This document shows, piece by piece, positions 43,221 through 63,958 of a stretch of DNA of 64,000 nt. Source of the stretch: Gammaproteobacteria bacterium (lineage in GTDB: Bacteria > Pseudomonadota > Gammaproteobacteria > UBA4575); the NCBI GenBank assembly GCA_965247265.1, contig OZ252002.1:2108863-2172862 (forward strand), written 5' to 3'. A program made the translations under genes and the position numbers. The notes beneath the pieces are model-generated. The model saw only the letters and a program-made list of their open reading frames with translations, did not search any database and had not been told where the DNA came from. The number at the start of each line of letters is the position of its first letter. Position 1 is the first letter of the stretch.

Positions 43221-43224
43221 ATAT

Positions 43225-43264
43225 GTTCTCTCTAAGTTCTCATAATAGAGAACTTAAAGAGAAC
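43225..43264. promoter_or_regulatory. candidate LexA operator array (GTTC/GAAC tetrads) in the lexA promoter
   Basis: GTTC at 43225 and 43237, GAAC at 43250 and 43261; includes GAAC-N7-GAAC and the palindrome AGTTCTC-N5-GAGAACT; no CTGT-N8-ACAG box present. Confidence 0.3.
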
Positions 43265-43326
43265 TTTCAACCTCTATGCCAACTAAATTGCTTGGATCCA
43301 ATTAAAATTAAAGCAGACATTAAAAC

Positions 43327-44379: not shown

Positions 44380-44422
44380 TACAACAACTCTGTAACTAGA
44401 TCTGCTGCGCTTTTAAGATCAT

Positions 44423-47412: not shown

Positions 47413-47449
47413 TTATTTCTTCCATGTATTTCTTCAACCTAAATTTTGA

Positions 47450-47996: not shown

Positions 47997-48300
47997 TAAT
48001 AATTTATTTTCAGCAAGCATAGGAAAGCTTCTGGTTGAATATGCTGATTTAGATCAGTCAAATTTACTGAGGTTTAATAAATATTATATTAATCATCTTT
48101 TAACTGATCTAATACAGTAAAGGCTAATATTCTCTTTGACCTCTATAACTTCAAGCAAGCACAGTCCATAGCCCTTTAAAAGTCAGCTTTAACTGTAGGT
48201 TCACATTAATAACAAGTAAGTTGAATAATAGCTTTTATCTAAATTTGAAGCCCGAATCAGCATATAATCGGGCTTCTTAGTTATAAAAGAATACTAATTA

Positions 48301-48747
48301 TCAATTAATCTTAACATGTATTTGTTTTGGTTTTGCTTCCTCTGCTTTTGGTATAGTTAATTCCAAAACTCCATTGCTAAAAGATGCTTGCGCATTATTG
48401 ACATCAACTTGCTTAGGCAGGGAAAAACTTCGTTCAAATGAACCATATACGCACTCAGTACGGTGTTCACGATGCTCATCTGTAACTTTTTCAGTGTTTT
48501 TTTCACCACTGATTATTAATGTATTATCATCAATTGTGACATCGACATCATCCTTTTTAACTCCTGGAATCTCGCCTTTAACAATATAGGCGTCCTTGGT
48601 TTCTTTGATGTCGACAGAAGGAACCCAATTCCCACTTAATATTCCTTCATCCTCCTTACGTAAACCAGAAGCACTTGTAGGAAATTGATAACGCTTAAGC
48701 ATCTCCCCCATCTCACGAAACGGGTCAAATTGTATTATATTGTTCAT
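48301..48747 (-). CDS. Hsp20/alpha-crystallin small heat-shock protein
   Basis: 148 aa; ACD-domain motifs 'VDIKETKDAYIVKGEIPGVKKDDVDV...GVLELTIPK'. Confidence 0.85.
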   Translation of the reverse strand: MNNIIQFDPFREMGEMLKRYQFPTSASGLRKEDEGILSGNWVPSVDIKETKDAYIVKGEIPGVKKDDVDVTIDDNTLIISGEKNTEKVTDEHREHRTECVYGSFERSFSLPKQVDVNNAQASFSNGVLELTIPKAEEAKPKQIHVKIN

Positions 48748-49004
48748 AATAATCTCCTATAAAATAAATTACTCAACGTATATTTAGTTTAAGTAGGGCC
48801 ATATGCTTGTTTTTCAAGCCTATACGTGAAAATTTAAAAATAAATTAAACGTATTTCGCTTTTAACTAATCTAAATCAATTTATAGATAGCTCTTTATTC
48901 CTCGTTATTCAATCAGTGGTTACTCACTGACATAGATCAATATAAGTTTTCTTAAATTTCGATATATATAATTTATCCAAATTAAACTTTTAAAAGATAC
49001 TAAA

Positions 49005-49373
49005 ATGAACCCAACGTTATTCGATAAAATTGGCGGAAAGGAAACTGTTGAGAAAGCCTCACATTTTCTGTATGTAAATATTTTGCGGGATAGTCGAATT
49101 AAACATTTCTTTGAAAATGTCGATATTGAAATACAGAAGCGCAAAATGTCGGCATTTTTAACATATATATTTGGCGGGCCATCTCTTTACACAGGAAGAG
49201 GTATGCGTCTCGCACATAAAGGTGCAGTTGAAAATGGATTAAACGATGATCATTTTAATGCCATGATTGATTGTGTGAGAGCTGCACTAAATGAGTTAAA
49301 CATTGATAACACCTCCATTAATCAAGTTACAAAAACTATCGAAGAACATCGTGATGATGTGCTAAACAGATGA
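49005..49373 (+). CDS. glbN: truncated haemoglobin (2/2 Hb, group I)
   Basis: 'FDKIGGKETV...FY..V..D..I..FF' and 'FGGPSLYTGRGMRLAH' trHbN signature. Confidence 0.8.
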   Translation: MNPTLFDKIGGKETVEKASHFLYVNILRDSRIKHFFENVDIEIQKRKMSAFLTYIFGGPSLYTGRGMRLAHKGAVENGLNDDHFNAMIDCVRAALNELNIDNTSINQVTKTIEEHRDDVLNR

Positions 49374-49696
49374 TGAAACTACGTATATAAGAAAGTTTAC
49401 ATAATGGTTATTAAACGAATCTACTTGAACCAACTATCAATGACTTAAAAATCATTATAAAAATAATGATTAGCACCCAAATCAGGAAACTCAACAACTT
49501 CTTTAATCTTCTCGGCTAGGGCAATTACTTTAGGGTCATTCGATATTAGAGTATGGTAGTTGAGCGCTCAACCACACTCAGTTTATATGCTGTTTATATA
49601 TAGTGTCTTTATAACTCTAACAAAACTTGGTGCCCCAAAGTTTCCCCTAAATTTAATTCATCATAAAAAATTCAGCAGTAATAGCGAAACTTTAAT

Positions 49697-49906
49697 TTAA
49701 ACAGTAACAATATTTTCGGCTTGCGGGCCTTTTTGACCTTGAGTGATTGTGAATTCTACTTTTTGACCTTCTGCCAAAGTTTTGAATCCTGCACTAGCAA
49801 TTGAGCTATAGTGCACAAATACATCTGGGCCAGACTGCTGCTCTATAAAACCAAATCCTTTAGATTCGTTAAACCATTTAACTGTTCCATTTACTGTGTT
49901 AGACAT
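49697..49906 (-). CDS. cold-shock protein (CspA family)
   Basis: '[15 protein letters not shown]' RNP1 and 'VFVHY' RNP2. Confidence 0.9.
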
Positions 49907-50157
49907 AATAATATTCCTAAATAATTAAAAAATAAGTGCGCCTCTTGTTAGACATGAATAGCGTGAGAATAGACTAATTTTAAAAACTTCAGGACGGGGT
50001 ATTACGAATAAAACAACGAAATGAAAATATAAACAAAAGACTTTCTTTAAGCTGATTTGCAGACTATAAGGCTGAAATTTTGAAGTCAACCTATTTTACA
50101 AAAATTTAGATGTAAATCATCATTTGACAGGCACATTACTCTACCAAAAGATAACTA

Positions 50158-50188
50158 AATGTCCGCTTTGGGTCGATAGCGGTCATTT
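50158..50188. repeat. hairpin repeat copy 1
   Basis: AATGTCCGCT-TTGGGTCGAT-AGCGGTCATT. Confidence 0.7.
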
Positions 50189-50522
50189 ATTTATTAGCAG
50201 AAATCATTGCTACAGCATGGCTTGTTATCTCTTGATAAACCCCTTCCCCTCCTGGGAGGCTTAAATTTAAATTATGATCCCAATGTGAATTTTCATTTTG
50301 ATTTTCTAATGCTGCAAAGCTGATAGAAAAATTTGACTCTTTACCATCCCACACAAATAGTATTCTGCTATGCGGTTTTCCTAATTCCAACGTGAAACTT
50401 CCAAATACCATTGGGTAATACGAATGTCGGTATACGGCGATCCCAGATTCTCTTAATTCTTCTGCTATGAATAAGAGCGACTTTATATGTTCTATCGCTT
50501 GTTGTGAGATATTCATTACCAA
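50187..50522 (-). CDS. hypothetical protein bracketed by two copies of the hairpin repeat
   Basis: 111-aa ORF; repeat copies lie at 50158-50188 and 50536-50568. Confidence 0.35.
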   Translation of the reverse strand: MVMNISQQAIEHIKSLLFIAEELRESGIAVYRHSYYPMVFGSFTLELGKPHSRILFVWDGKESNFSISFAALENQNENSHWDHNLNLSLPGGEGVYQEITSHAVAMISANK

Positions 50523-50535
50523 TTATTATTACATT

Positions 50536-50568
50536 GTAATGTCCGCTTTGGGTCGTTAGCGATCATTC
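50536..50568. repeat. hairpin repeat copy 2
   Basis: GTAATGTCCGCT-TTGGGTCGTT-AGCGATCATTC. Confidence 0.7.
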
Positions 50569-51066
50569 CCTTTTCTGCTTTCTCCACTCCCATGGCTTTA
50601 CTCTTTCACTCTCTGGTAGCTTCCAAATTCCTACCTTACTCTCTTGCGCCTCTTCTTCAAATTCATATAAACGTTCAGTCGTTGCATACTTAGGGTACAC
50701 ATACGCATATCCACCTTTCACTAATTCACCATTCACCCATACGTCTCCAACATAGACATGCCCTACAATGCGGTCGTAACGATCTATATCAACTTCATAA
50801 ACATCGACGACTTTACCGGCAACGTAATCCACTAAGGCTTCTTTAGATTTTTTCCAGAAAGGTTGGCCTCGCTCAGGCGCATCAATTTCAGCTAAACGTA
50901 TACGAAGTTCTTCATTATCAATCAAGATTCTGATGCTGTCCCCATCCGTAACTTTAACAACTTCACCTCTGTAAGCTATTTTTGTGCTTTGTACGTCACT
51001 ACATGTGACATAGAAGAAAGCAATGGAGCTAATGAAGAATAGGTAAAAAAGAGATTTCTTGATCAC
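50563..51066 (-). CDS. thermonuclease (SNase-like), secreted
   Basis: 'VTDGDSIRI...IRLAEIDAPE' and 'R...Y...VW' SNase catalytic motifs; signal peptide. Confidence 0.7.
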   Translation of the reverse strand: MIKKSLFYLFFISSIAFFYVTCSDVQSTKIAYRGEVVKVTDGDSIRILIDNEELRIRLAEIDAPERGQPFWKKSKEALVDYVAGKVVDVYEVDIDRYDRIVGHVYVGDVWVNGELVKGGYAYVYPKYATTERLYEFEEEAQESKVGIWKLPESERVKPWEWRKQKRE

Positions 51067-51505
51067 AAGTAATCAGCTACCTTCATACACGGCTCCTGCG
51101 ATGTGAAAACCTTTTGCACTCACTGTTTTGGAAGCGTCAAGAAAATATAATTCGGTCTCTCCTTCTTGGACATGCGTTTTATCAGAATCTTGGTATTCCA
51201 TTATTGACGGATAGGCCCAGATTTCGATGGTGCTGCCATTGGGGACTTCATCCCAATAATTCTCGATTGCACCCCATATGGGTTGGCCTTGTTTAGTAAA
51301 AGTTTGTATACGACTTGGTTCCCCAAATTGAGCAGTAATCTCATCACGTGCGGCTCCCACATTGAAATCAGCGTGCATTGGTACAGGCACATCGTCACTA
51401 CATGAGACAATTAATACCATGAACGGGAGGATTAAAAAGTATTTAATGCTTCTTAATCTTTTTATTTTCATCTGTTGAGTCCTAATTCGTGATGAATTTA
51501 TATTT
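50985..51505. repeat. segmental duplication, copy A (thermonuclease 5' end + lipoprotein gene)
   Basis: ~85% identical at the nucleotide level to 58665..59200. Confidence 0.6.
51073..51471 (-). CDS. lipoprotein, copy 1 (paralogue at 58764..59162)
   Basis: lipobox 'VSC'; ~85% identical to the second copy. Confidence 0.5.
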   Translation of the reverse strand: MKIKRLRSIKYFLILPFMVLIVSCSDDVPVPMHADFNVGAARDEITAQFGEPSRIQTFTKQGQPIWGAIENYWDEVPNGSTIEIWAYPSIMEYQDSDKTHVQEGETELYFLDASKTVSAKGFHIAGAVYEGS

Positions 51506-51905
51506 AGAATTTGTGTTCTGTATCACTGGGAACTAAATCATCTGTGGTCCAACTTGAAACTTTACTCCAAGCTTCTTCTAATATTGTTTCCAAGTTGGTT
51601 TTGAGCTCCTGGATGGAGACTGAATTGATGATGGTTTCATGCTGCCATATATGATCGCGTTCTTCGAGTTGATACGCACAAATCCATAACGTCCAGGTAA
51701 GCTCCTTTTCGTTTTGAAGATAGATTTGTATCAATCTATGTAAACTATCCACCCAGCGTAATTCACGGTCCGGCCAGTTCTTGGTATTTTTGCCTAGTGG
51801 AATATCTTTACTACTTGCAAATTTCTCCAGTATTGGATCAAGGCTTTCCAATGGTTTTGCAAGTCTTACCCATTCCTCATCTGTTCCATGAAAACCATTT
51901 GCCAT
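51504..51905 (-). CDS. hypothetical protein
   Basis: ORF only. Confidence 0.35.
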   Translation of the reverse strand: MANGFHGTDEEWVRLAKPLESLDPILEKFASSKDIPLGKNTKNWPDRELRWVDSLHRLIQIYLQNEKELTWTLWICAYQLEERDHIWQHETIINSVSIQELKTNLETILEEAWSKVSSWTTDDLVPSDTEHKF

Positions 51906-52142
51906 AATTAATGCTTTTTAATCTCTTTATTCCCTTGAACAGTCTCCACTTGCTTGATCACTGATAACATCACTTCCATTCCCATCTTAAAAATCTCTTT
52001 GGCTTCTTCTGTCAGAACCCATGGTCGGCTTGCGAGAGGTGGATTATGTCTTACATGTTGCCAATAACCGTATTTGGTGTGAGATTAGATGAAATTCAAA
52101 TAAGACAATTAACTGTGTGGCTTATTCACAATTAAGTAAGTT

Positions 52143-52179
52143 TGAACGTCCGCTTTCGGCCATTAGCAGACATAACGTT
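52143..52179. repeat. hairpin repeat copy 3 (degenerate right arm)
   Basis: GAACGTCCGCT-TTCGGCCATT-AGCAGACATAACGTT. Confidence 0.6.
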
Positions 52180-52270
52180 TAGGATCAGCGGCCGCACGAC
52201 CACGTTTAACTTTAGCTACCTATCCATCAAGGTCCGCTGCATCCGCTTGTTAGGCGGTGTAAATACTGTT

Positions 52271-53083
52271 TCAAAATACAATGGTCACACGCAAGAAGGC
52301 TGCAGTAATAGATGTGGTGTCCTTGTTTGAGCTTTGATTGTGCACGTTGAAGAGGTCATCTAATTCCCTTTCAAGGTCCGAGGCATTGCCATTCTTTTCA
52401 GCAGCCACGAATGCATTCATGGTCGGTCCGTAGTATTCTTTATAAGTCCTCATATACTCGGTAGCTGATACGGGCGCATTAAAAGTCCATGAATCTCGGG
52501 AAAATGATATGTGGTCCGCTGGTACACCAGCCGCTACAAAACGCTCGGTTACGTTACCTTCAACACCCCAGGTCATCGGGCTAATGAATCCTTCTGGCGG
52601 CGGCGGCATATAGGCAGAGACGATTTTTAGGATTTGTGCCACTAGTGTTGGATCATTCGGAATCCAGTTCCCCATGATTATCCTGCCTCCGGGACGGGTT
52701 ACTCGAACCATCTCCTTAGCTACGTCAAACGGATTTGGTGCGAACATGGCTCCAAAGATGGATACAACAAGATCAAATGAATCATCTGCTAGCTCATGTA
52801 AATTACTGGCATCGCCTTGCTGAAACCTGCAATTTACGAGATTTTCCTTCAAGGCTCTTTTGTTCGCGGCTTCAAGCAGATTATCCGCGATATCCACACC
52901 CACTACTTCAGCTCCAAGCCTTGCCGCGGGTAAAGCAGTGGTTCCATCACCACAACCAAGATCCAGCACTTTCAGGTCTTTGTGAACGCCGATGTTTTCG
53001 ACAAGTGCTTCTCCACTCTCTCGCATAGTATCGGCAATGCGTGTGAAATCGCCTTTTTCCCATAGAGCTTTATTTTGATTCAC
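52271..53083 (-). CDS. class I SAM-dependent methyltransferase
   Basis: 'VLDLGCGDGTTAL' motif I. Confidence 0.75.
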   Translation of the reverse strand: MNQNKALWEKGDFTRIADTMRESGEALVENIGVHKDLKVLDLGCGDGTTALPAARLGAEVVGVDIADNLLEAANKRALKENLVNCRFQQGDASNLHELADDSFDLVVSIFGAMFAPNPFDVAKEMVRVTRPGGRIIMGNWIPNDPTLVAQILKIVSAYMPPPPEGFISPMTWGVEGNVTERFVAAGVPADHISFSRDSWTFNAPVSATEYMRTYKEYYGPTMNAFVAAEKNGNASDLERELDDLFNVHNQSSNKDTTSITAAFLRVTIVF

Positions 53084-53275
53084 GATATCTCCTGACGAGA
53101 TTGGTTAAGATATTGAGTATATCCGCCTAACATATTAATACATGGCGATTTTGCTTAGATATCACGCTATACGTGTAGAATCTGCAAGATCCACCATTAA
53201 CATGCATTAACACCAATTAAATAGTGATACCTGAGCATTTTTGCATTGATATCGCATATATATGGTTAGTATTGC

Positions 53276-53306
53276 AATGCCTGCTTTCGGCCAAAAGCGG
53301 TCATTC
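53276..53306. repeat. hairpin repeat copy 4
   Basis: AATGCCTGCT-TTCGGCCAAA-AGCGGTCATTC. Confidence 0.65.
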
Positions 53307-53341
53307 GCCATGCTATTTAATTAGCCATACGCCTAGAATAA

Positions 53342-53647
53342 TTATTCCAAGACCAATGATTCGAAGTGCCGTAATCTTTCCATCCGCAAATAAAGATGAA
53401 AAACAAACGAAACTATTAAACCTACAGAAATAACGAAAGTGATTGCATATGGAGAACTTTTTAATGCGTAATATGTAGCCACGCCAAAACCAGCACTACC
53501 TATAATTACTAGTCCAAAATTAATTAGATTGCTAACCGGAGCAATTAATGCGTATTTAAAAGATGCCACTTCACCTGTTCGGAGACCATAATAAGAGAAT
53601 AGAGTGTAGGACACTATTGTCGCGACTATCGCTAAAATCCAATTCAT
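53342..53647 (-). CDS. small membrane protein
   Basis: three transmembrane segments. Confidence 0.35.
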   Translation of the reverse strand: MNWILAIVATIVSYTLFSYYGLRTGEVASFKYALIAPVSNLINFGLVIIGSAGFGVATYYALKSSPYAITFVISVGLIVSFVFHLYLRMERLRHFESLVLE

Positions 53648-53725
53648 TGTTTGCTCAGCTCTTTAGTATTTTTAAATTTGTGAACATGCTTTTTAGATTA
53701 TATAGTATCTGTATTCACCTCATCC

Positions 53726-53767
53726 AATGTCCACTATGTGTCGCTTACCGGCCAAAAGCGGACACTC
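53726..53767. repeat. hairpin repeat copy 5 (9-nt insertion in the left arm)
   Basis: AATGTCC[actatgtgt]CGCTTACCGGCCAAAAGCGGACACTC. Confidence 0.55.
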
Positions 53768-54038
53768 ACGATCTTGGAGTTACTTCCCTACGAATATAAT
53801 ACGAAGTATTTTAAGGAGGGCTTTGTTGCCCCTTATTAACATTAGAGTTTGAATTTTCTCTACAAGGTGTTTGAAATGGATAATAAAAAGCTGAAGGTAA
53901 GATAGCAAATCCAACAAGCGTTGATATAAGAATATGTTTTATTGTGCGCTTAGTGGTGACTTATTGGTGACTCATTTTTTTATTGAAATGAGCTATATGT
54001 TCTAGCAACTTATATATTGCTGTTTTTAGAGGATAAAT

Positions 54039-54088
54039 TGGCGCGCCCGGAGGGACTCGAACCCCCGACCACCTGGTTCGAAGCCTAG
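54039..54088 (-). other. tRNA-Arg(UCG) 3' fragment (anticodon loop to CCA), att-like remnant, copy 1
   Basis: minus-strand reads ...CUUCGAA (anticodon UCG)-CCAGG-UGGUC-GGGGGTTCGAGTCCCTC-CGGGCGC-G-CCA; the 5' half (D-arm, 5' acceptor) is absent. Confidence 0.6.
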
Positions 54089-54139
54089 TATACATTTCAA
54101 TGATTACAATGAGTTAAATTTAAAAACTATTTAGATTAT

Positions 54140-54170
54140 GAATGTCCGCTTTCGGCCAATATCTTTATTT
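54140..54170. repeat. hairpin repeat copy 6 (left arm + loop only)
   Basis: GAATGTCCGCT-TTCGGCCAAT, then diverges; 50 nt from the tRNA fragment. Confidence 0.55.
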
Positions 54171-54692
54171 TTGTATTGATTCTAGATACAAAAGCAGTTC
54201 GAAGATTCTTCCTCTTACAAGCGTTTCAGAATAGCGAGTTCTTATTTCAAGCCAATGTTCCGTATTATAGCGGTCACCCCATACTGGCATTACACGCGGG
54301 CCGTGAGATTTTATTTCTTCACGTCCATCAATGATTCGATATAGTTTGCTGAATGGAAATTCAGCATAATTCTTTTTTTGAATTAAGGTTAAATTTGCAG
54401 GTTTCTCCATTAATGCAAATGCGTAAAAGCCATTACCCTTTCCATCCAAACCATGACAAAGCGAACAGGTTCTCTCATACTCTTTTTGACCCATAAGAAC
54501 CGCATCTTTTGTTTGTTTTATTAACTCTTCTTCGTCAATATTCTCTTTGGCGCGCACATCGGTGATTACATTAATTTCTTTTTGAGCATTAATAAGCTCT
54601 TCAACATCTTGCGCAAAAGTTTGATGAACTATTACGCTTAAAATACATGTAAATATAATTAGAATTCGAGAGCGTAGGCGAATATATTTCAT
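54165..54692 (-). CDS. class I c-type cytochrome, secreted
   Basis: 'CSLCHG' haem-binding site and 'MPVWGD' Met ligand; signal peptide from the internal Met (MKYIRLRS) of ORF 54165..54746. Confidence 0.7.
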   Translation of the reverse strand: MKYIRLRSRILIIFTCILSVIVHQTFAQDVEELINAQKEINVITDVRAKENIDEEELIKQTKDAVLMGQKEYERTCSLCHGLDGKGNGFYAFALMEKPANLTLIQKKNYAEFPFSKLYRIIDGREEIKSHGPRVMPVWGDRYNTEHWLEIRTRYSETLVRGRIFELLLYLESIQK

Positions 54693-54827
54693 TGTCATTA
54701 AAAAATAAAATTTAATGCAAAATATTTTATACGATTTTAATATCACTGATATGATTTAGATCAAATATTTCAAGGATTTATGGCAGGTTGGAGTACGTAT
54801 TAGAATACATATAAGTACTGATCAAGA

Positions 54828-55358
54828 TCAATGCGGTCCATTTTTTTTATGCATATAATGCGCAATTCCACTTAGTGCCATCATCCAACGGGCCAAAACA
54901 AATGTAGGCCCTTTCGTATGGGCAAGTTCATGTCCAAACATTATGCCAAGCCCAAGATAGATGCCGGCAGATACGGTTGCTCCATACAACTGCCAACCTG
55001 TAACACCATGATGTATGGTTACACCTAATATTTCTGATGTACCAAATGGAACACCAGTAACGTATTCGTACACCCGCCATACAAGTGCAAGTTGCAACAT
55101 AACAAACACTGGGTACTGTACCCACATCATTATCTTTAAAAGCCAATCTATGTCATATGCATCACCATCATCATCTCGTCCTGCAGGTTCACAATGAATA
55201 GATTTAATTGCGCTAGTTGCATAATCAACGATGATTGAGGCAATGAAAAGACCAACACCCGTCCAAACCCATGGGCCGCCAATAACCACGCCCAGTAAAG
55301 CTAAAAATATTAAGCTTGGTGTCAAAAAATATCGAATGTTTACTAAAACTTTATGCAT
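54828..55358 (-). CDS. membrane protein with 'HELAHTK' His-box (AlkB/desaturase-like N-terminal fragment?)
   Basis: 176 aa, four transmembrane segments, only one His-box; full-length family members are ~400 aa. Confidence 0.35.
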   Translation of the reverse strand: MHKVLVNIRYFLTPSLIFLALLGVVIGGPWVWTGVGLFIASIIVDYATSAIKSIHCEPAGRDDDGDAYDIDWLLKIMMWVQYPVFVMLQLALVWRVYEYVTGVPFGTSEILGVTIHHGVTGWQLYGATVSAGIYLGLGIMFGHELAHTKGPTFVLARWMMALSGIAHYMHKKNGPH

Positions 55359-55399
55359 GTTCGCATCCTCACTTACAAACTAAAATTTTATATTTTTAA

Positions 55400-56194
55400 T
55401 TAATAGTCACTGATTTGGACGGATTTTAATTGCCCTTGAAATGTTTCATGTGCATTTGGAAGAAAATCATAAGCAACTAAATCTTGCCCACATTGGCTTT
55501 TTCTGGTTTTAATTCGATCAAACCAGATCTTTACATTTTTTCTTTCATCAATAAGTGAACTACAATTAGCCATCTCACAAAGATGCAAATAAACCGTCCA
55601 ATGTAGATCTGCCCAAGTATATTTGTCACATACAATGTACTTGTTTCTCTCTAGCTGTTTATCTAATGCATCAAAAAATACTTTTAAATCTTCACAGCTT
55701 GCATCAATCACCTGGTTACCTGGCGAATAAGAGGGGTCGCTATACTTTTTAGAAATTGATTCATGAACAATAAAATTTACAAGAGGAGCAACATTCGCGA
55801 CAGCAATATCAACCCAGTAATCTTGCAGCGCAGCAAGTGAAGCATTACGCGGTGTTATCGAATAACCCAATCCCCTTGCATTTATAAATGCGGTAATTGC
55901 ATCACCACCATATGTAATGAAATCAGCTTCTTTTAAGCAAGGTGTGATTGAAAAGAGTGAAATCTCTTCAATGTACTCGTCCATTTGATCTACCGAGTCA
56001 GCAATCATGCTGTAACAATTCATTTCCATACCTTGTTCAGCTGCGGTGATAATACATTTAAGTGTATCGGGGTCTGTTGGGCTACCAATTAGTTCAAGCA
56101 CATACTGTGTTTTTTTCATGTCGCCAGATAATCCGTATCTGGAACTGTCATTTGATCCCGCTTTTTCAGCCATTAAATTAAATATATCTGTCAT
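55400..56194 (-). CDS. GST-like protein (thioredoxin-fold N-domain + GST-C-like), paralogue 1
   Basis: 'TPCLKEADFITYGGDAITAFI' cis-Pro loop region; tandem with a paralogue. Confidence 0.45.
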   Translation of the reverse strand: MTDIFNLMAEKAGSNDSSRYGLSGDMKKTQYVLELIGSPTDPDTLKCIITAAEQGMEMNCYSMIADSVDQMDEYIEEISLFSITPCLKEADFITYGGDAITAFINARGLGYSITPRNASLAALQDYWVDIAVANVAPLVNFIVHESISKKYSDPSYSPGNQVIDASCEDLKVFFDALDKQLERNKYIVCDKYTWADLHWTVYLHLCEMANCSSLIDERKNVKIWFDRIKTRKSQCGQDLVAYDFLPNAHETFQGQLKSVQISDY

Positions 56195-56229
56195 GATTAT
56201 TTACCTGTATTAAAAATGTTTACAAAATT

Positions 56230-56856
56230 TTATGCGGCTACTTTTTCAACCTTAGATTCATAACCAGGAATATCTGCCTTTACTCTAGTTAGCCAATTAT
56301 TTATATTTTCATAACTGCTAAAAACTTCGCTCTGGCCAGACTCCTCAAGCATTTTAAATACTCCTGACCAATGAATATCTGCTAAAGAAAATTCTCCAAC
56401 AATATAGTCTTTATCTTTAATATTTTTATCAAACACTTCTAAAACTTTTTTAATTTCTTTTTTTCTATTAGAAATATTATTTAGCAGAGGTTCAAATTTT
56501 TTGGTCAGTACTTGTATCCAATACTGCTGCATTGCTAAAACACGCGCCTTTCTAGGGTGGATTGTGGGCGTTCGTCCTTTTATATTTAAATAGGTCAACA
56601 CACCTCTCATACCAGTAACAATAAAGTCACCATCTTTTAAACAAGGAAACTGAGTCAAATTATCCATATGTAAAGACTCGGATAACTTTTCATCATCTAA
56701 TGACGAAACATTCCATTCAATGTCAACAGGAAGGTCCCTATAAGATGCCAAAAAGATACATTTATATGATTCAGAATCACCTGGCTGACATACTAAGTTA
56801 GAAGTTTCGTTTGCCTTTTTTTTCGATTTAAATAAGCCCATTGCATTAATCTCCAA
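56230..56856 (-). CDS. GST-like protein, paralogue 2
   Basis: 'QFPCLKDGDFIVTGMRGVLTYL' cis-Pro loop region. Confidence 0.45.
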   Translation of the reverse strand: MEINAMGLFKSKKKANETSNLVCQPGDSESYKCIFLASYRDLPVDIEWNVSSLDDEKLSESLHMDNLTQFPCLKDGDFIVTGMRGVLTYLNIKGRTPTIHPRKARVLAMQQYWIQVLTKKFEPLLNNISNRKKEIKKVLEVFDKNIKDKDYIVGEFSLADIHWSGVFKMLEESGQSEVFSSYENINNWLTRVKADIPGYESKVEKVAA

Positions 56857-56989
56857 TAATTATAGCGACCTGATTTAATTGTCTTTATTCAATTTCCTTG
56901 ATTTAAACATTGAATAATTTCAATTTAAAAATCTTGTTTACCGATTTCAAGAAAGGAAATAGCATACTTACGTAATTCATAAGAAATAC

Positions 56990-57061
56990 TGATCTGAGTC
57001 AGGTTAAAATTGCTAAAATATCAGGCAGGTATGTAAAATTGATTTATACTGATCTAGATCA
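56990..57061. promoter_or_regulatory. two FNR-type boxes in the divergent GST-like/fnr promoter region
   Basis: TGATCTGAGTCA (56990-57001) and the perfect palindrome TGATCTAGATCA (57050-57061), both TGAT-N4-ATCA; FNR consensus is TTGAT-N4-ATCAA. Confidence 0.4.
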
Positions 57062-57168
57062 GAAATATGGGATTTACTATATGCGCATCACTATAAACAT
57101 ACTTAAAGACATATGTATTTAAATAAAAATGAAATTTAGTCTCTCGTTATAATTATCATAATTTCTAG

Positions 57169-57918
57169 GTGGCAATGACTAGCACAGAGCATAAAATTAA
57201 CTTCAAGTCATTAAAAGCTTCTTGTCATAACTGCTCTTTGGTAGAACTATGCCTGCCAAGAGGATTAGCTACCAATGACTTAAGTGCATTAGATGATTTA
57301 ATTCAGCAGTGCAGACTTGTTAAAAAAGGTGATCCTATTTTTAGTCAGGGGGAAAAATCCGGATGCATTTTTGCAGTGCGATCAAGCTCAGTAAAGTCTT
57401 TTACGACAGCAAGAAATGGTGAAGAACAGATTTTGGGATTCCATTTACCTGGTGAATTACTTGGTCTAGATGGTCTCGATAATCAAATCCATAGCTGTTC
57501 TGGTATTGCATTAGATACATCTACAATTTGCGAGTTACCCATAGATGAATTGAATGTTTTGTGTGTAAAAATGCCTGGCCTGCAGCAGCAATTACTGAGT
57601 CTAATTAGTGATGAAATTACTAAAGATCACTCGATGCTCCTTTTGTTAGCACGGCGTAATTCCGAGCAAAAGCTGGCCACATTTTTTATCAACCTCTCAA
57701 ATCGCTTTAAAGTCCGTGGCTATTCAGCTAATGAATTTGGTTTGACGATGAGCCGATGCGATATAGGTAACTATCTAGGACTTGCAGATGAGACAGTGAG
57801 TAGATTAATAACTAAATTTAGAGAAAATAAAGTTATTGATGCTGATAGAAAGAAAATAAAGATACTCAACCACGAATTATTATGCAAAGTGGCTGAAGGT
57901 GATTGCAATTTAAATTAA
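57169..57918 (+). CDS. fnr: FNR-type (Crp/Fnr family) [4Fe-4S] oxygen-sensing regulator
   Basis: N-terminal 'CHNCSLVELC' (C-x2-C-x5-C) plus central 'ICELP' Cys; recognition helix 'ETVSRL'. Confidence 0.75.
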   Translation: MAMTSTEHKINFKSLKASCHNCSLVELCLPRGLATNDLSALDDLIQQCRLVKKGDPIFSQGEKSGCIFAVRSSSVKSFTTARNGEEQILGFHLPGELLGLDGLDNQIHSCSGIALDTSTICELPIDELNVLCVKMPGLQQQLLSLISDEITKDHSMLLLLARRNSEQKLATFFINLSNRFKVRGYSANEFGLTMSRCDIGNYLGLADETVSRLITKFRENKVIDADRKKIKILNHELLCKVAEGDCNLN

Positions 57919-58072
57919 TAATTAAATAAGCTAATTTCACCACCGCTAATCAACATGCCTAATGGAATAAAGTTTGTTCTTCCAAAATATTAATCTCCTT
58001 TTTAAAGATTATGATGTGGATTCATATTTTAACTGCTTTAAACTAAACTTTATGGGCTTCTTCATTAAACTA

Positions 58073-58108
58073 TTTGAACGTCCGCTTTCAGCCAAAAGCG
58101 GTCATTCA
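58073..58108. repeat. hairpin repeat copy 7
   Basis: TTGAACGTCCGCT-TTCAGCCAAA-AGCGGTCATTCAA. Confidence 0.7.
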
Positions 58109-58205
58109 ATTTCTAACGATTTTCCTTGATTATTTTCTAAACAACAAACGATTGTTTACAAAAGCATGTTTTATATATTTTTGTTATGGAGTGCATTAGG
58201 TTATC

Positions 58206-58544
58206 TCAGTCTGTATCTATGATGTGACGTTCTTCAAATTCAATTATTTCTCCACATTTTAAATCTTGGATATATTTAGGATTATCTTCTAACTGTCCTA
58301 ATAATTTATTATATTGTACTAATAGAATCTCAACCCACAATTGCTCTGTGCTCGGGATTTCTGGATCATCACTTTTAAAATTAAATATAAGCTTTACTTT
58401 ATGCCCTTTCTCTAGGGGTTCAATCGCTTCTTTTGAAGGTTTAGATAGTGTATATGGAAACTCTTCTGACAGCTTTTGTGCATCTTCAAGCTTCCAACTT
58501 TTATCTATCACTGTTTCTCTTTTGGGTCGAAAGCGGACATTCAA
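58206..58544 (-). CDS. hypothetical protein (true start uncertain; the annotated start lies inside a repeat copy)
   Basis: the first residues 'MNVRFRP' are encoded by the hairpin repeat. Confidence 0.3.
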   Translation of the reverse strand: MNVRFRPKRETVIDKSWKLEDAQKLSEEFPYTLSKPSKEAIEPLEKGHKVKLIFNFKSDDPEIPSTEQLWVEILLVQYNKLLGQLEDNPKYIQDLKCGEIIEFEERHIIDTD

Positions 58545-58545
58545 C
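58516..58545. repeat. hairpin repeat copy 8 (loop + right arm only)
   Basis: TTTTGGGTCGAA-AGCGGACATTCAA. Confidence 0.55.
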
Positions 58546-58664
58546 CCGTCCTCAAATTATCTGAAAATATTGTTAAATGATTGGATGATGCGCATGTCAA
58601 AATTATATTTCTTTAACCTTTCTTCCAAAACTTATTTCTTTAATCTCTCTTTTGCTATTAAGTA

Positions 58665-59200
58665 GACTTTCTTTGCGCTTTGTACATCATTGCAAGTGAC
58701 ATAAAAAAATGCGATTGCACTGATGAAGAATAAGTAGAAGAGAGATTTTTTGATCACAAGAAATCAGCTTCCTTCATACACAGCTCCTGCGATGTGAAAT
58801 CCTTTTCCACTCACTGTCTTAGAATCATCTAAAAAATATAATTCGGTTTCACCTTCTTGGACATGAGTGTTATCAGAATTTTGGTATTCTATTGTAGATG
58901 GGTACGCCCAGATTTCGATCGTGCTGCCATCGGGTATTTGTTCCCAATAACTCTCTATTGCCCCCCATATCGGTTGGCCTTGTTTAATAAAGGTTTGCGT
59001 ACGACTGGGTTCACCAAATAGTGAGGTAATCTCATCACGTGCGGCTCCCACATTGAAATCAGCGTGCATCGGTACTGGCATTTCGTCTTCGCATGAGACA
59101 AGCAATACAATGAGCGGAAGAATTAAAAAGTAATTAATGCTTCTTAATCTTTTTATTTTCATCTGTTGAGTGCTGATTCGTGATGAATTAATATTTTTCA
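58665..59200. repeat. segmental duplication, copy B (thermonuclease N-terminal remnant + lipoprotein gene)
   Basis: matches 50985..51505; only ~30 codons of the thermonuclease are retained before divergence. Confidence 0.6.
58764..59162 (-). CDS. lipoprotein, copy 2 (paralogue of 51073..51471)
   Basis: start taken at the internal 'MKIKRLRS' of ORF 58764..59201; lipobox 'VSC'. Confidence 0.5.
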   Translation of the reverse strand: MKIKRLRSINYFLILPLIVLLVSCEDEMPVPMHADFNVGAARDEITSLFGEPSRTQTFIKQGQPIWGAIESYWEQIPDGSTIEIWAYPSTIEYQNSDNTHVQEGETELYFLDDSKTVSGKGFHIAGAVYEGS

Positions 59201-59351
59201 TAACTTGCTTTGCCTAAACACTACGCTGCAAATAAAATTAAAATGAGTGGTGGGAGTTTTTTCATTGCATCCCCTCTACTTATTATTCTTATAGGGGAAT
59301 CATACTCCTAGGCCCAACAAAATTCTGAGCCATTGATTTATCTATATTTCT

Positions 59352-59384
59352 AATGTTTGCTTTCGGCCAATAGCGGATGTTAGG
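59352..59384. repeat. hairpin repeat copy 9 (degenerate)
   Basis: AATGTTTGCT-TTCGGCCAAT-AGCGGATGTT. Confidence 0.55.
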
Positions 59385-59420
59385 ATTTTTTGATGATTCA
59401 TTGATTTAGACCAGTATAAA

Positions 59421-59846
59421 TTGACAATCTACTCTATAATATTATTTACGATTACGAAAATAAACCAAATAAATATTATAAATCCAACCTTATTTGAAAA
59501 AATCGGTGGTAAAGAAACTGTAGATAAAGCAGCAAAATTTCTATATGTAAACGTATTGCGCGATGATCGCCTCAAGCGCTTTTTCGAAGGCACTGATATG
59601 CAAAAGCAAGAGCGCATGATGAGCGCATTTTTGGTTAACATTTTGGGTGGCCCGTCACTTTACGTTGGAAAACACATGCAGCGTGCGCATGCGGATTCGG
59701 TTAAAGATGGACTGAGTGACAAGCATGTTGACGCGATGATGGAATGTGTGGGTGCGGTGCTTCGTGAATTGAAAATAGAAGCCGATCTAATTAGTGAAGT
59801 TATAAAGACAATTGAAAAGCATCGGGACAGTGTACTTGGTAGATGA
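59421..59846 (+). CDS. truncated haemoglobin paralogue 2 (start uncertain)
   Basis: 'FEKIGGKETV...ILGGPSLYVGKHMQRAH'; the position of copy 1's ATG reads ATA here; the only in-frame ATG is 30 codons upstream. Confidence 0.6.
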   Translation: MTIYSIILFTITKINQINIINPTLFEKIGGKETVDKAAKFLYVNVLRDDRLKRFFEGTDMQKQERMMSAFLVNILGGPSLYVGKHMQRAHADSVKDGLSDKHVDAMMECVGAVLRELKIEADLISEVIKTIEKHRDSVLGR

Positions 59847-59944
59847 GCTAATATTATCGTTCATTCAAAAAGTAATTCATGTTAGTTCTATTATTAAAAA
59901 CGCTGAAGCGAAGTCGCGGAAATAAGAATTGTTTTGTATGTTAA

Positions 59945-59982
59945 AGGCTACAATTTGAATGTCCGCTTTGGGTCGGAAGCGG
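59945..59982. repeat. hairpin repeat copy 10
   Basis: TTGAATGTCCGCT-TTGGGTCGGA-AGCGGTCATTCACAA. Confidence 0.7.
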
Positions 59983-60213
59983 TCATTCACAATATTTCTG
60001 CCTAATATAAATTCCCTTTTAGCTTTTCTTTTAGCTCTTAATATAAGTGTAAAATTGTATTATTAGCACTATTCTTAAGAACGATCAGAGTAAACATGGC
60101 TTATTTTATATAAAATGTAGTTTTAAAATTTCTATCGTACAGTAAAGTATAAGCTACTCTGTATTAAGAATTATAAATAACCATCTCTTTTTTTAACAAA
60201 AGACAAAATTGAC

Positions 60214-60984
60214 ATGAAAAAAATACTTATTGGTTTAGTAGTCTTAATAATTATTATTGCAGGCGCTGCATATTATCTTTTTAGCAATTTAGACAATATT
60301 GTGAAGGCCGCAATTGAAAAATACGGATCAGAAGTGACTCAAACAAGCGTGAACGTGAGCAGTGTACACATTGGATTAACCGATGGGCTAGGGACAATTA
60401 AAAATTTAGTTATTGGTAATCCTAAAGGATTTGATAGCGACTATTTGTTTCAAATGGACAACATAGGCGTACAACTAAATTTAGATAAAATTTCTAAAGA
60501 TTTAATCATAATCAATCAAATCATGCTGGATGGCCCTTCTATCATTTATGAATTGAACAACACTACTAGCAACGTCGATGTGGTTAAAAAGAATGTTGAT
60601 GCTTATGCAGGTAGTGGTGCTGAGAACAAAGAGCGCGATCAAAGTGCTGGACCTAAATTGATTATTGAAAATTTCATTATCAAGAACGGTGATGTAAAAG
60701 CAGTATCGAATATGGTAAAGGATAAAACCTTATCCACTAAACTCCCAACTATCCATTTGCGTGATATTGGGAAAGAGACAGGTGGTGCTACCTCTGCAGA
60801 AGTGTCAAAGATCATCATTACGGAGTTGACGAAAGAAACAAAAGCTGCAGCTGGCGACCTTGATTTACGCTCCTTGATGAATGAGGAGATGTTGAAGAAT
60901 CTCGATACAGAGACATTAAAAGATGTGGATAAGCTTAAAGGCCTTGAAAAGGAAGTGGGTGACAAACTAAAGAAGATGTTTTAA
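60214..60984 (+). CDS. membrane-anchored protein of unknown function (AsmA/DUF748-like?)
   Basis: N-terminal transmembrane segment, rest hydrophilic. Confidence 0.35.
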   Translation: MKKILIGLVVLIIIIAGAAYYLFSNLDNIVKAAIEKYGSEVTQTSVNVSSVHIGLTDGLGTIKNLVIGNPKGFDSDYLFQMDNIGVQLNLDKISKDLIIINQIMLDGPSIIYELNNTTSNVDVVKKNVDAYAGSGAENKERDQSAGPKLIIENFIIKNGDVKAVSNMVKDKTLSTKLPTIHLRDIGKETGGATSAEVSKIIITELTKETKAAAGDLDLRSLMNEEMLKNLDTETLKDVDKLKGLEKEVGDKLKKMF

Positions 60985-61022
60985 CTCAAATCTTTTTATT
61001 CAACTCAAATTTAATTTAGAAT

Positions 61023-61054
61023 CAATGTCCGCTTTGGGTCGTTAGCGGACATTG
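61023..61054. repeat. hairpin repeat copy 11 (perfect 11-bp stems)
   Basis: CAATGTCCGCT-TTGGGTCGTT-AGCGGACATTG. Confidence 0.75.
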
Positions 61055-61059
61055 CGTAA

Positions 61060-61338
61060 CTAATTTTGTATTAACCTTTCCCTAAACTCCCTCGGCACCT
61101 CTTCATCCAACCAAACATTATTCGGTTCCTTCCATTCCTTAACCCTTGGCTTTCTTATCTGATAACATCGATACGTAATCTTCCCTTCTTCTTCAAGCTT
61201 TGCGTAAATGGCTCTTAATGATAAGCATGCATCTGCTACATGCACCACATCTACTGGCTCCCATTCCACATATGGCTTCTTCATTATCTGATCAGCCTTG
61301 ATAATCTCTTCTTTTATATTGGCGTGGATTTCAATCAA
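61060..61338 (-). CDS. hypothetical protein
   Basis: ORF only. Confidence 0.35.
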   Translation of the reverse strand: MIEIHANIKEEIIKADQIMKKPYVEWEPVDVVHVADACLSLRAIYAKLEEEGKITYRCYQIRKPRVKEWKEPNNVWLDEEVPREFRERLIQN

Positions 61339-61655
61339 AATTGATCCTTCTTGATGTTAAAATGGCCTATATCGACTAACCCCTACCCTTACCCTTACTT
61401 ACCCATATATAAGCGATTTTCCCCTCTGAAAGCCGCATAGAATAGGGCCGAAATTCAAGTTTTTAAGGGTCTTAGGTATCTATAAATAGCTAGAAACTTG
61501 GTCTTATTATTCAGGTCTAAAGTCATACCTATTGTTTGGTTAGCTCCATTACCAATGGATGGGTTATAGAAGTTATTCAGTAGGTGCTCGCCATCGTAGG
61601 CTTGTGTGTATCCCTAAGCACAAACCATCTGTTAGTGGTGGCGTTCTTTCACTAT

Positions 61656-62201
61656 TTAATTTCTAGTTGCTCTAGCAATCTCTTCAAAGTTTATATCTTT
61701 ATAGCTGAACACTTGGTTATTCATTAGACTTTTATCATAATTATCTACCCAATCCTTATGAAGCCCTAAATCCATATGTGTGGGTGGGGCAATAGTAAAC
61801 GTCACAGAGTATAAATCTGATGTTTTTCCAGGAAGAGAAATGTTTCTTGCATAATGAAAGTTATCGACTAAATTAATATGCGGTAGCAAATCTACGAAAG
61901 CGCTTAACCCTGTTGTTTGATTAACAACTTTAGCAGTAATGTAAAGGTAAGGTACAAAACCTCCTTCTGGTGTTCCCTCAGGAATGTCTTTATCAGCCCA
62001 ATTAACACGCGCTTCGATATGAACATGGGTTTCACTCTCATTAATATGGCGCATGCTTGGCATTATCTGATCCTTGATGGCTCCTTCAAAAATGAACACG
62101 ATCCCTGGTGATACAGTTTCTTCACCAATAACCAATTCAATTGCATGAACAATTGAAAAATTAGCTAAAACGAAAAAAATTAATATTAACTTCTTAATCA
62201 T
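61656..62201 (-). CDS. P19/FtrA-family periplasmic Fe/Cu-binding protein
   Basis: 'HVHIEARVNWAD...PEGGFVPYLYITAKVVNQTTG...LPHINLVDNFHYARN' aligns with Campylobacter P19 'IHLEADIHA...PEGFWMPYLTIAYEL...MPMVADDGPHYGAN'. Confidence 0.6.
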   Translation of the reverse strand: MIKKLILIFFVLANFSIVHAIELVIGEETVSPGIVFIFEGAIKDQIMPSMRHINESETHVHIEARVNWADKDIPEGTPEGGFVPYLYITAKVVNQTTGLSAFVDLLPHINLVDNFHYARNISLPGKTSDLYSVTFTIAPPTHMDLGLHKDWVDNYDKSLMNNQVFSYKDINFEEIARATRN

Positions 62202-62705
62202 TAGATTTTCCTTATTTATTTTTGAGTTTAATACACAGCCTGGCTAGATTTAATTGTATTGTTAATGTTTAGCTTTGTTTTAAAAATAGCCCTTGTAACC
62301 ATATCGTTGCCCCTTAGTAAATTTTCTTTGAATTTTATAAATTCCGATTAGTGAAAATTGATTAGTCTTGGATTAATCATAGGTTCGTGCAGGATCTGTT
62401 TTTTTGTGCTTGTTATGTGACATGTTTCAATAATATCTATTTGCTAATAATAACGATTCGCATTAGTATTCGCAATAAGTTTACATCATTTTGGAAGAAT
62501 TAATTAAGATTTACTAAATTTTATGAAGTTTTTTCTCTATTAAACAGTAACTTATTTATTGTCCTTGCAGCTATCACTGCTTTACAAATGTAACTTCTTG
62601 GAGAATCCCATGTAAAAGCAATAGAATAATTGCAAAATTCTTTTCGCGAAATTTTCGCGGCGAAAAGTTTAGATGTTCTAAATTTATCTAAGCCCTTGTT
62701 TTTTA

Positions 62706-62750
62706 TGGCGCGCCCGGAGAGATTCGAACTCCCGACCACCTGGTTCGAAG
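62706..62750 (-). other. tRNA-Arg(UCG) 3' fragment, copy 2 (direct repeat of 54039..54088)
   Basis: ...CUUCGAA-CCAGG-UGGUC-GGGAGTTCGAATCTCTC-CGGGCGC-G-CCA; differs from copy 1 by compensating T-stem substitutions. Confidence 0.55.
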
Positions 62751-62918: not shown

Positions 62919-63446
62919 TTAAGAAGAAACAGGCATAAACTGAAGGACACTTGGGAGACGCACTTCTACACGGCTTCTCAATAATGCATCATCTTTGCAT
63001 GCACTGATAAATGCATTAACGCCATGCACAACATCATTAATGAAAGACTTCATGCCAATTATTACGAGATTACTATTTTCGTTTGGATCATATGCATGTT
63101 TGCCGCCGTCGTGATATACGTATTTAATCGTATCAGAGTCTTCTGTGTGCAACTCGGCAGTCGAACCATATGTATGCAGAAAAGCACAACGCGCAGCATA
63201 AACATCCTTGCCTCTATATTGATATGGTTGATCTGCGTGACCTTGAAGATAAGTGTCAACCCATTGCTTAAAATCAGACCGAGTAACTCTATCTTTGTCT
63301 ACAGGCCTGCCAAGAGATGCTAGAAGATCTATACATATAAATGACATGGCAACTGCTGCGGTATTAATATCAGCTTCATCACATCGTTTTATCTCACTAA
63401 CTAAACCAACTATAGCTTTCCAGTTTTCTGTAGATTCAGTTCCCAT
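62919..63446 (-). CDS. hypothetical protein
   Basis: ORF only. Confidence 0.35.
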   Translation of the reverse strand: MGTESTENWKAIVGLVSEIKRCDEADINTAAVAMSFICIDLLASLGRPVDKDRVTRSDFKQWVDTYLQGHADQPYQYRGKDVYAARCAFLHTYGSTAELHTEDSDTIKYVYHDGGKHAYDPNENSNLVIIGMKSFINDVVHGVNAFISACKDDALLRSRVEVRLPSVLQFMPVSS

Positions 63447-63556: not shown

Positions 63557-63958
63557 CTACGACTTCCCTTTTAGATATAATTTGAGTTGTTCTATGCTTA
63601 GAGCAGGCTGCGTTTTATGTATCATGGCATGGCAGTTAGGACATACAGGAACTAAATCATTAACTGGATCCAGTATATATTCTTTACGTATGTCGGCCAA
63701 TGGAATCTTATGGTGTACATGTATGTAATTCTCTCCCAATGGACCATAAAACTTTTTAAATTCAAAGCCACATACTTTACATTTGTATCCATGATGTTTA
63801 ATGCATTCAGCTCTTGCTTTGTCATCTCGCTCGTATGTATTTACAGATATTTGCTTAGATGCACCTTCTATAAACTGCTTTGGAGTTACTATTTCCTCTG
63901 GAAGACTATTACCCAGAAAATTATCAGATGCATACCAATCATTGCCAATTCGCTTCAA
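63557..63958 (-). CDS. HNH endonuclease
   Basis: 'CKVCG...HVHHKIP...CPNCHAMIH' HNH/zinc-finger motif. Confidence 0.6.
   Translation of the reverse strand: MKRIGNDWYASDNFLGNSLPEEIVTPKQFIEGASKQISVNTYERDDKARAECIKHHGYKCKVCGFEFKKFYGPLGENYIHVHHKIPLADIRKEYILDPVNDLVPVCPNCHAMIHKTQPALSIEQLKLYLKGKS

Follow-up and report, generated by a model that had tools for sequence, protein, structure and literature searches.

Two tRNA-Arg(UCG) 3' halves in a decayed mosaic region of a gammaproteobacterial genome and their probable origin by insertion into a resident tRNA gene

The stretch of DNA analysed here (the window) comprises 64,000 nucleotides of contig OZ252002.1 from a Gammaproteobacteria bacterium (lineage UBA4575; assembly GCA_965247265.1, positions 2,108,863 to 2,172,862) and carries in its right part two incomplete copies of a tRNA-Arg gene with the anticodon UCG. 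Both copies consist of the 3' half of the gene and lie ~8.7 kb apart in the same orientation. A first-pass annotation of the window had read them as attachment-site (att)-like scars that bracket an islet of 8.7 kb. The locus is composed of the following features, in which L numbers denote loci in other genomes, ORF an open reading frame and trailer the DNA that follows the CCA end of a tRNA gene or half-gene:

54039-54085, minus strand: copy 1, tRNA-Arg(UCG) 3' half from G30 to CCA, allele GGGGG/TTCGAGT/CCCTC, identical to the tRNA consensus at 47/47 nt
62706-62750, minus strand: copy 2, tRNA-Arg(UCG) 3' half from C32 to CCA, allele GGGAG/TTCGAAT/CTCTC
62612-62705, minus strand: trailer of copy 2, ~94 nt, homologous to the DNA downstream of the intact tRNA-Arg of L166
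41406-46344, minus strand: backbone common to L166, L167 and L168, with a Y-family polymerase gene, lexA, NTP_transf_5, a frameshifted PqqD-like gene and two small ORFs
46345-62611: variable zone from the backbone to the trailer of copy 2, absent from L166 and L168
54849-57936: conserved core module desaturase-GST-GST-Fnr, kept in five relative loci, here with a truncated desaturase gene
50158-61053: cluster of hairpins (AATGTCCGCTTTGGGTCGnnAGCGGACATT) resembling repetitive extragenic palindromes, on both sides of copy 1, same family in L120-L123
62751-64000: putative start of inserted DNA with a 175-aa ORF and an HNH gene, running off the window, without likeness to the 5' tRNA flanks of L166 and L168

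The two copies form 45-nt direct repeats at 54039-54083 and 62706-62750, which on the minus strand read CTTCGAACCAGGTGGTCGG(G/A)GTTCGA(G/A)TC(C/T)CTCCGGGCGCGCCA; in copy 1 the match to the tRNA consensus reaches 54085 (47 nt, 100%). Each of them comprises the anticodon loop CUUCGAA (UCG), the variable loop, the T-arm, the acceptor 3' strand and CCA. Hereby, the 45-nt pattern with up to three mismatches occurs at two sites in the window, which are these copies, compared to none in 100 shuffles. Copy 2 is identical at 45/45 nt to the intact tRNA of L084. The two copies differ from each other at three positions, of which two are the sides of one T-stem pair (G-C vs A-U) and the third lies in the T-loop. 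ARAGORN finds zero tRNAs over the window and Rfam nothing at gathering score; at E<=10, Rfam gives noise only between 53.5 and 64 kb, where the weak matches to HPnc0260 and tmRNA were discarded as the tRNA-like sequence itself. The 5' half of the tRNA (GCGCCCGTAGCTCA, three mismatches allowed) is not found anywhere in the window, the acceptor 5' strand is not found within 1.5 kb upstream of either copy, and neither a group I nor a group II intron is matched in Rfam. With no matching 5' half nearby, no acceptor 5' strand and no intron in the anticodon loop, the copies are not split or intron-containing genes. Thus, the first-pass annotation described the fragments correctly, namely as two minus-strand pieces running from the anticodon loop to CCA that lack the D-arm and the 5' acceptor strand, are not functional tRNAs and carry compensating T-stem changes, to which the T-loop difference has to be added. 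For the annotation of the genome this means that neither half-gene should be entered as a tRNA. Prokaryotic genomes reportedly contain partial tRNA genes that were mis-scored as tRNAs; the copies in the window resemble them in being non-functional 3' pieces that were probably left by mobile elements. In contrast to those cases, ARAGORN and Rfam make no call here, so that no annotation problem arises.

The same 45-mer was surveyed in other genomes, one genome per species, which provided at least 118 loci (L001-L118) with 120 matches. Nearly all loci are labelled Gammaproteobacteria or unclassified Proteobacteria, and the families named at them include Woeseiaceae, Steroidobacteraceae, Arenicellales, Legionellales and Coxiellaceae. 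In 87 of the 120 matches the 45-mer is the 3' part of an intact tRNA-Arg(tcg) gene, while the others represent fragments, a few of which are truncated because the contig stops there; displaced fragments amount to about one quarter of the matches. In all fragments with enough upstream sequence (32/32, both window copies included) the tRNA identity stops 0-5 nt upstream of C32, the end points in the window being C32 for copy 2 and G30 for copy 1. As the end points are not randomly spread, they represent the signature of an anticodon-centred att site and not that of random truncation, which supports the assignment of the fragments as genuine displaced tRNA-Arg(UCG) 3' halves of the anticodon-centred att type. 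In the Islander survey of tDNA islands this anticodon-centred class is the commonest one (2083 of 3919 islands), and a 3' fragment is present in 3760 of the 3919 islands (PMC4383910).

Intact genes with either window allele occur in other genomes: the allele of copy 2 is the commonest one (55/86 intact genes) and that of copy 1 accounts for 10/86. The compensatory difference between the copies can thus be attributed to two natural sources and not to selection acting on the fragments. The proposal of the first-pass annotation that two independent events had copied different versions is in line with this result, since each copy matches a natural allele of the intact gene, as two separate sources would predict. 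In the tRNA-Arg(tcg) loci checked by coordinates, tyrosine integrases of one family (~360-375 aa) are encoded 17-66 nt from the CCA end by genes that converge on the tRNA; the other integrase-carrying loci have a member of this family within 2 kb of the CCA end. Just after CCA, the trailer can contain the motif WWTCAAnnnnTTR, which is IHF-consensus-like. An integrase is located on the trailer side in 9/17 loci with this motif, compared to 6/70 loci without it (Fisher p=1.3e-4). A second type of trailer among the tRNA-Arg(tcg) loci carries repeated TTCCGGnCACATGG words. Moreover, one IMG/VR provirus contig carries an intact tRNA-Arg gene beside a weak integrase-like ORF (E=3e-18 with a hidden Markov model, HMM). 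The survey thus shows that uncultured Gammaproteobacteria often serve as hosts to elements that integrate at the anticodon of their tRNA-Arg(UCG) gene. When both flanks of each window copy were compared to the 118 tRNA-Arg loci by tblastx, no shared element genes were found. In the window itself, Pfam detects no integrase among the larger ORFs between 41.4 and 64 kb, a set that leaves out two ORFs of 111-122 aa at 49-50.5 kb, and an HMM built from 12 integrases found next to tRNA-Arg(tcg) in other genomes gives nothing at E<=10 against the six-frame translation of the whole window; the absence of an integrase from the window, as already reported by the first-pass annotation, is borne out by both searches.

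The closest relatives found were recognised by the identity of LexA, which is 91% for L166 (ERZ893782 k147_3447009), 87% for L168 and 84% for L167. The window is collinear with L166 over 32.4-46.3 kb, with up to 90% amino-acid identity. Beyond PqqD, an intact tRNA-Arg(tcg) gene follows at 3.0 kb in L166 and at 1.9 kb in L168, placed 1.4-2.4 kb from the small backbone ORF in these two loci. In both, the gene is oriented like the window copies, with its 3' end on the side of PqqD and lexA. Its 5' flank holds a 139-aa ORF in L166 and a 158-aa ORF, DAO, GDPD and glycerol kinase genes in L168. Copy 2 agrees with the 3' half of the L166 tRNA at 45/45 aligned positions. The likeness extends into the trailer, where positions 22-94 after CCA show ~77% identity between copy 2 and L166; the local alignment score is 64, compared to 18.9 +/- 2.6 for shuffles (about 17 standard deviations above the mean). 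The trailer of copy 2 also holds a near-match to WATCAANNNNTTR. Synteny, orientation and trailer homology together identify the locus in the window as the resident tRNA-Arg(UCG) locus. An arrangement in which tRNA-Arg adjoins lexA, as in L084, was rejected for this lineage, as NTP_transf_5, PqqD and the small ORF lie between them in the closer relatives. Since the intact gene of L166 and L168 lies at the syntenic locus and has the same orientation, an intact tRNA-Arg to the right of 64 kb is a reasonable expectation. The trailer of copy 1, on the other hand, is not homologous to the trailers of L166, L168 or copy 2, and resembles weakly the integrase-side arms of L115, L059 and L113. Words from the copy 2 trailer yielded matches of chance length only (19-33 nt) in viral scans. 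The idea that the conserved trailer serves as a tRNA terminator was dropped, as no intrinsic terminator is predicted in the trailer of either copy.

Compared to the tRNA-Arg loci of L166 and L168, the window contains additional DNA at 46.35-62.6 kb and at 62.75-64 kb; the module at 54.85-57.94 kb is present in every relative examined, at other loci. The absence of the 46.35-62.6 kb segment from L166 and L168 implies that the variable zone is far larger than the interval between the copies. Within this interval, the fnr-like gene named by the first-pass annotation scores as a true Fnr by NCBIfam, and many relatives encode an Fnr with 75-84% identity to it. Hereby, a small ORF, a 394-aa desaturase gene, two GST genes and Fnr follow each other in the order of the window in 5/5 loci (L119, L120, L121-L123). 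The flanks of the module differ among the three distinct contexts that these five loci represent, and neither tRNA-Arg nor its 3' half was found at any of the five. In the window, homology to the relatives' Fnr loci begins at 54849, and the desaturase keeps residues 1-170 only, the remainder being found nowhere in the window. The cytochrome c gene (54165-54746), which lies between copy 1 and this breakpoint, has no match in L119-L123 by tblastx and thus no counterpart at the relatives' Fnr loci. The conserved module and the truncated desaturase therefore show that the left third of the proposed islet is a conserved module of the chromosome, broken off 763 bp away from copy 1. L119 and L167 (ERZ25072999) share a contig, on which the lexA and Fnr loci are 1.08 Mb apart, compared to 14 kb in the window; this difference implies that one of the two lineages has undergone a large rearrangement or translocation.

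The same zone shows further signs of age. The hairpin AATGTCCGCTTTGGGTCGnnAGCGGACATT is present in 7 strict and ~11 loose copies, all within the 11 kb from 50.1 to 61.1 kb and none in the other 53 kb of the window. As the family also occurs in L120-L123, the hairpin belongs to the lineage. Of the seven hairpin repeats that had been placed between the copies, it holds that the repeats are present there; they extend, however, also to the left, up to 50.1 kb. A segment of ~500 nt is duplicated at 50971-51469 and 58662-59160 with 83-97% identity, so that its two copies flank copy 1; the ORFs 51073-51471 and 58764-59201, which it covers, are paralogues without a family match. Three pseudogenes are found, namely the PqqD-like gene (44382-45566), which is split over at least three frames compared to 396 aa in L166, a FadL/Toluene_X gene (46784-47412) reduced to aa 1-214 in two frames, and the fatty-acid (FA) desaturase gene (54828-55358) with aa 1-170 of 394. 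Hairpins, duplication and pseudogenes together mark an old, tolerated and reshuffled stretch and not a recent import. The segment 46.35-62.6 kb is thus a decayed mosaic that includes core genes and not a discrete element. The first-pass view of the 8.7 kb between the copies as an islet is not supported, for two reasons: the interval holds a core module that is conserved in five relative loci without a tRNA fragment, and the two copies do not bound the zone that varies against the closest relatives, which consists of 46.35-62.6 kb and the DNA to the right of 62751. The region 46-64 kb should accordingly be read as a decayed plastic zone and not as a defined island.

To the right of copy 2, the 175-aa ORF belongs to an unannotated family of 258 homologues. 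Their identities run from 60 to 71%, and the family has a patchy distribution in Gamma- and Deltaproteobacteria, with representatives in Steroidobacteraceae, Deltaproteobacteria, Marinobacter, Algiphilus, Shewanella and Desulfobacter. The contexts of two homologues are unrelated, one lying among transposase genes and the other between rlmB and a TetR gene (L124 and L125); the next ORF after the homologue has 184 aa in L124 and 101 aa in L125. The ORF has no match in Pfam, NCBIfam, PADLOC or in plasmid or phage collections. The HNH endonuclease gene, which the first-pass annotation had placed just beyond the second fragment, is matched by Pfam HNH at 63557-63958, with the 175-aa ORF between it and copy 2. 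By PADLOC (mREase_IV and ZorE-like matches), its product is similar to the nuclease portions of ZorE and of type IV restriction enzymes. The DNA to the right of 62751 looks like accessory cargo, which agrees with copy 2 being the half that an insertion displaced at its near end.

Taking these data together, we consider it likely that the resident tRNA-Arg(UCG) gene was split in its anticodon stem-loop by a site-specific insertion, that the DNA between the copies is a decaying mosaic and that copy 1 is a second att relic. Hereby, an element of the tyrosine-integrase type would have inserted at the anticodon loop of the resident gene. Copy 2 with its ~94-nt trailer would be the 3' half that last belonged to the working gene and would form an attR-type junction. 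The incoming DNA would begin exactly at the fragment boundary 62751 and leave the window on the right; support for an insertion that starts there comes from the DNA right of 62751, which is unlike the 5' flanks of the relatives and contains a patchily distributed ORF and an HNH gene. The insertion should end beyond 64 kb at a regenerated intact tRNA-Arg(UCG) gene, probably accompanied by an integrase. Copy 1, with its different natural allele, would stem from another element whose integrase is gone. The DNA between the copies would be part of a long-resident mosaic at 46.35-62.6 kb with accessory genes, pseudogenes and a local bloom of hairpins, which the Fnr module must have reached, or become trapped in, by rearrangement; the mosaic nature follows from the core Fnr module, the truncated desaturase, the FadL- and PqqD-like pseudogenes and the lineage hairpins confined to 50.1-61.1 kb. 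If so, the half-genes mark the resident tRNA-Arg(UCG) locus as a hot spot of insertion.

Several observations weigh against this explanation. Neither an integrase gene nor a remnant of one can be detected in the window, and no tRNA fragment is found where the backbone ends near 46.3 kb. Of the putative newest island, 1.25 kb only is visible and its composition is not distinctive, while the intact tRNA, the far end of the insertion and any integrase would lie beyond 64 kb, outside the sequence seen. Moreover, the trailer of copy 2 could be native flank or the relic of an element arm, and it contains a near-match to the integrase-side motif WWTCAAnnnnTTR, yet neither the window nor L166 has an integrase there.

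For copy 1 two origins can be envisaged, which we regard as about equally likely. In the first, a serial array would have formed in the order E0, copy 1, E1, copy 2, E2. Copy 1 would then be an older array member, and the trailer of copy 2 the relic of an integrase-side arm that the window genome and L166 have both inherited. The shared orientation of the copies, the trailer motif and the absence of 46-62.6 kb from the relatives fit such an array. Against it stand the core module, which would lie within E1, the lack of an integrase and the absence of a fragment at 46.3 kb. The second takes the trailer of copy 2 as native flank and explains copy 1 as the att core of an element that came to lie in the native Fnr neighbourhood, either as a passenger attP or by secondary-site integration. 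The L166 homology, the hairpins and the truncated desaturase are consistent with this origin, which would require the Fnr neighbourhood to have been brought up to the tRNA by a rearrangement. In lambdoid and P4-like integrase systems an element-borne att core can stay in the chromosome as a passenger attP or after secondary-site integration. Such a core would explain a lone 3' half of a foreign allele that lies in native DNA and ends exactly at the crossover region; different from those systems, copy 1 has neither an integrase nor arm-type repeats identified in its vicinity.

The insertion proposed here shares several properties with the islands and prophages of Islander class A, which carry an anticodon-centred attP tDNA (PMC4383910). 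As in that class, a displaced 3' fragment extends from the anticodon stem-loop to CCA in the orientation of the target gene (two minus-sense halves, with the gene of L166 and L168 facing the same way), and the crossover lies at the canonical sublocation, the anticodon loop. Moreover, the allele of the fragment is not that of the regenerated gene or of other copies, and the target gene is used by integrase-bearing elements in many Gammaproteobacteria and on one provirus contig. In contrast to class A, neither a tyrosine integrase nor an intact tDNA is visible within the window, neither candidate island would pass the Islander filters on the window sequence, and core genes lie between the fragments. 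Islander also lists 125 arrays of at least two islands at one tRNA gene and requires an own integrase for each array member (PMC4383910). The window resembles such tandem arrays in its two same-orientation fragments of one tDNA, of different alleles and ~8.7 kb apart. Unlike in arrays, whose members each come with a fragment and an integrase, the two fragments here are accompanied by zero integrases, the copy 2 trailer is common to the intact locus of a relative, and no fragment lies at the backbone junction. The locus is thus a new instance of the well-known tDNA-island phenomenon in a degraded, integrase-less state. It does not change the current understanding of how such elements work and represents an ordinary, if messy, example of a well-known process.

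Among the alternatives, the one that survives best keeps 54086-62705 as one discrete islet of 8.7 kb (E1), with copy 1 as the displaced native half and copy 2 as the half supplied by E1 and later displaced by a second island. The copies have the same orientation, different natural alleles and a spacing typical of a small island, the copy 2 trailer contains a motif like that of integrase arms, and all of 46.35-62.6 kb is missing from L166 and L168, all of which speaks for this origin. We nevertheless regard it as unlikely, as the interval includes the core Fnr module known from five relative loci without att fragments, with the desaturase cut 763 bp from copy 1, and lacks an integrase. Moreover, copy 1 is flanked on either side by lineage hairpins and by the paralogous 500-nt segment, the variable zone runs 7.7 kb further to the left of this copy, and L166 carries the copy 2 trailer downstream of its intact tRNA without an island signature. 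It is still less probable, to a degree that we would call it far-fetched, that the copies are remnants of duplicated tRNA-Arg genes which were destroyed by ordinary deletion or rearrangement and not by an integrase. While the lack of an integrase and the abundance of pseudogenes and rearrangement scars would suit such a decay, random deletions should scatter, whereas both truncations lie 0-2 nt from C32 and those of 30 independent fragments elsewhere 0-5 nt from it; the alleles furthermore differ by a compensatory pair and both match functional alleles, unlike what is expected for decay after duplication. That the halves are functional RNAs, either parts of a tRNA that is split or contains an intron, or 3' modules of tRNA-like form by which upstream mRNAs are processed or stabilised, we hold to be extremely improbable: each half does follow an ORF on the same strand (the cytochrome c gene and the 175-aa ORF, respectively) at a distance of 80-170 nt and the T-arm is kept intact by the compensatory change, but that pair is explained by pre-existing natural alleles, identical half-genes are common as att scars elsewhere, and the searches for a 5' half in the window, for an acceptor 5' strand within 1.5 kb and for an intron or other Rfam match were all empty.

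A separate question is how the Fnr module came to lie between two att scars, which by itself is one mildly unusual feature. One could speculate that the desaturase-GST-GST-Fnr module moved as hitch-hiking cargo of tRNA-Arg-linked island arrays, which would explain both its place between the scars and its varying flanks in the relatives. We consider this very doubtful; if true, a global regulator would be horizontally or intragenomically mobile in this marine lineage.

The genes of the backbone, of the variable zone and of the DNA beyond copy 2 are, from left to right:

41406-42626, minus strand: Y-family polymerase (Pfam/NCBIfam)
42630-43220, minus strand: true lexA (Pfam/NCBIfam)
43223-43267: palindrome upstream of lexA, conserved with the lexA upstream region of L084, probably an SOS box
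43327-44379, minus strand: NTP_transf_5
44382-45566, minus strand: PqqD-like gene, broken into several frames
up to 46344: two small ORFs
46784-47412: FadL/Toluene_X remnant
between this remnant and two unknown ORFs: HSP20, then a globin (49005-49373), then SNase
between SNase and the methyltransferase: the two unknown ORFs
52271-53083: S-adenosylmethionine (SAM) methyltransferase
between the methyltransferase and copy 1: 101-aa membrane ORF
54165-54746, minus strand: c-type cytochrome, with Pfam Cytochrome_CBB3 and Cytochrom_C matches below the curated cut-offs
54828-55358: truncated FA desaturase, aa 1-170 of 394
55400-56194: GST-like gene
56230-56856: GST-like gene
57169-57918, plus strand: Fnr (NCBIfam 263 bits vs a cutoff of 228)
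from Fnr to P19, in this order: DUF2314, a lipoprotein-like ORF, a second globin (59421-59846), DUF748 and a 92-aa ORF
61656-62201: P19 (Fe2+ transport protein)
62919-63446, minus strand: 175-aa ORF, between copy 2 and the HNH gene
63557-63958, minus strand: HNH endonuclease gene (Pfam HNH, E=5e-8)

Base composition is flat over the region, with the exception of one kb of 46.6% GC at the methyltransferase compared to ~36%, which is the only kb above 45% GC in the right half of the window. The two globins (49005-49373 and 59421-59846) are truncated-haemoglobin paralogues, each of which is 61% identical to the single globin that L119 encodes by its Fnr neighbourhood. Together with cytochrome c, P19, HSP20, the desaturase and Fnr, they give the zone an oxygen/redox flavour. 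A metagenome scan with P19 gave only homologues of at most 70% identity, with zero synteny. Among these marine-metagenome homologues, 9/39 loci have P19 at a distance of 2-5 kb from tRNA-Asn(gtt) (L128, L129, L139, L140, L148, L156-L158 and L165), and in L138 a tRNA-Arg(tcg) lies 3 kb away from the P19 homologue.

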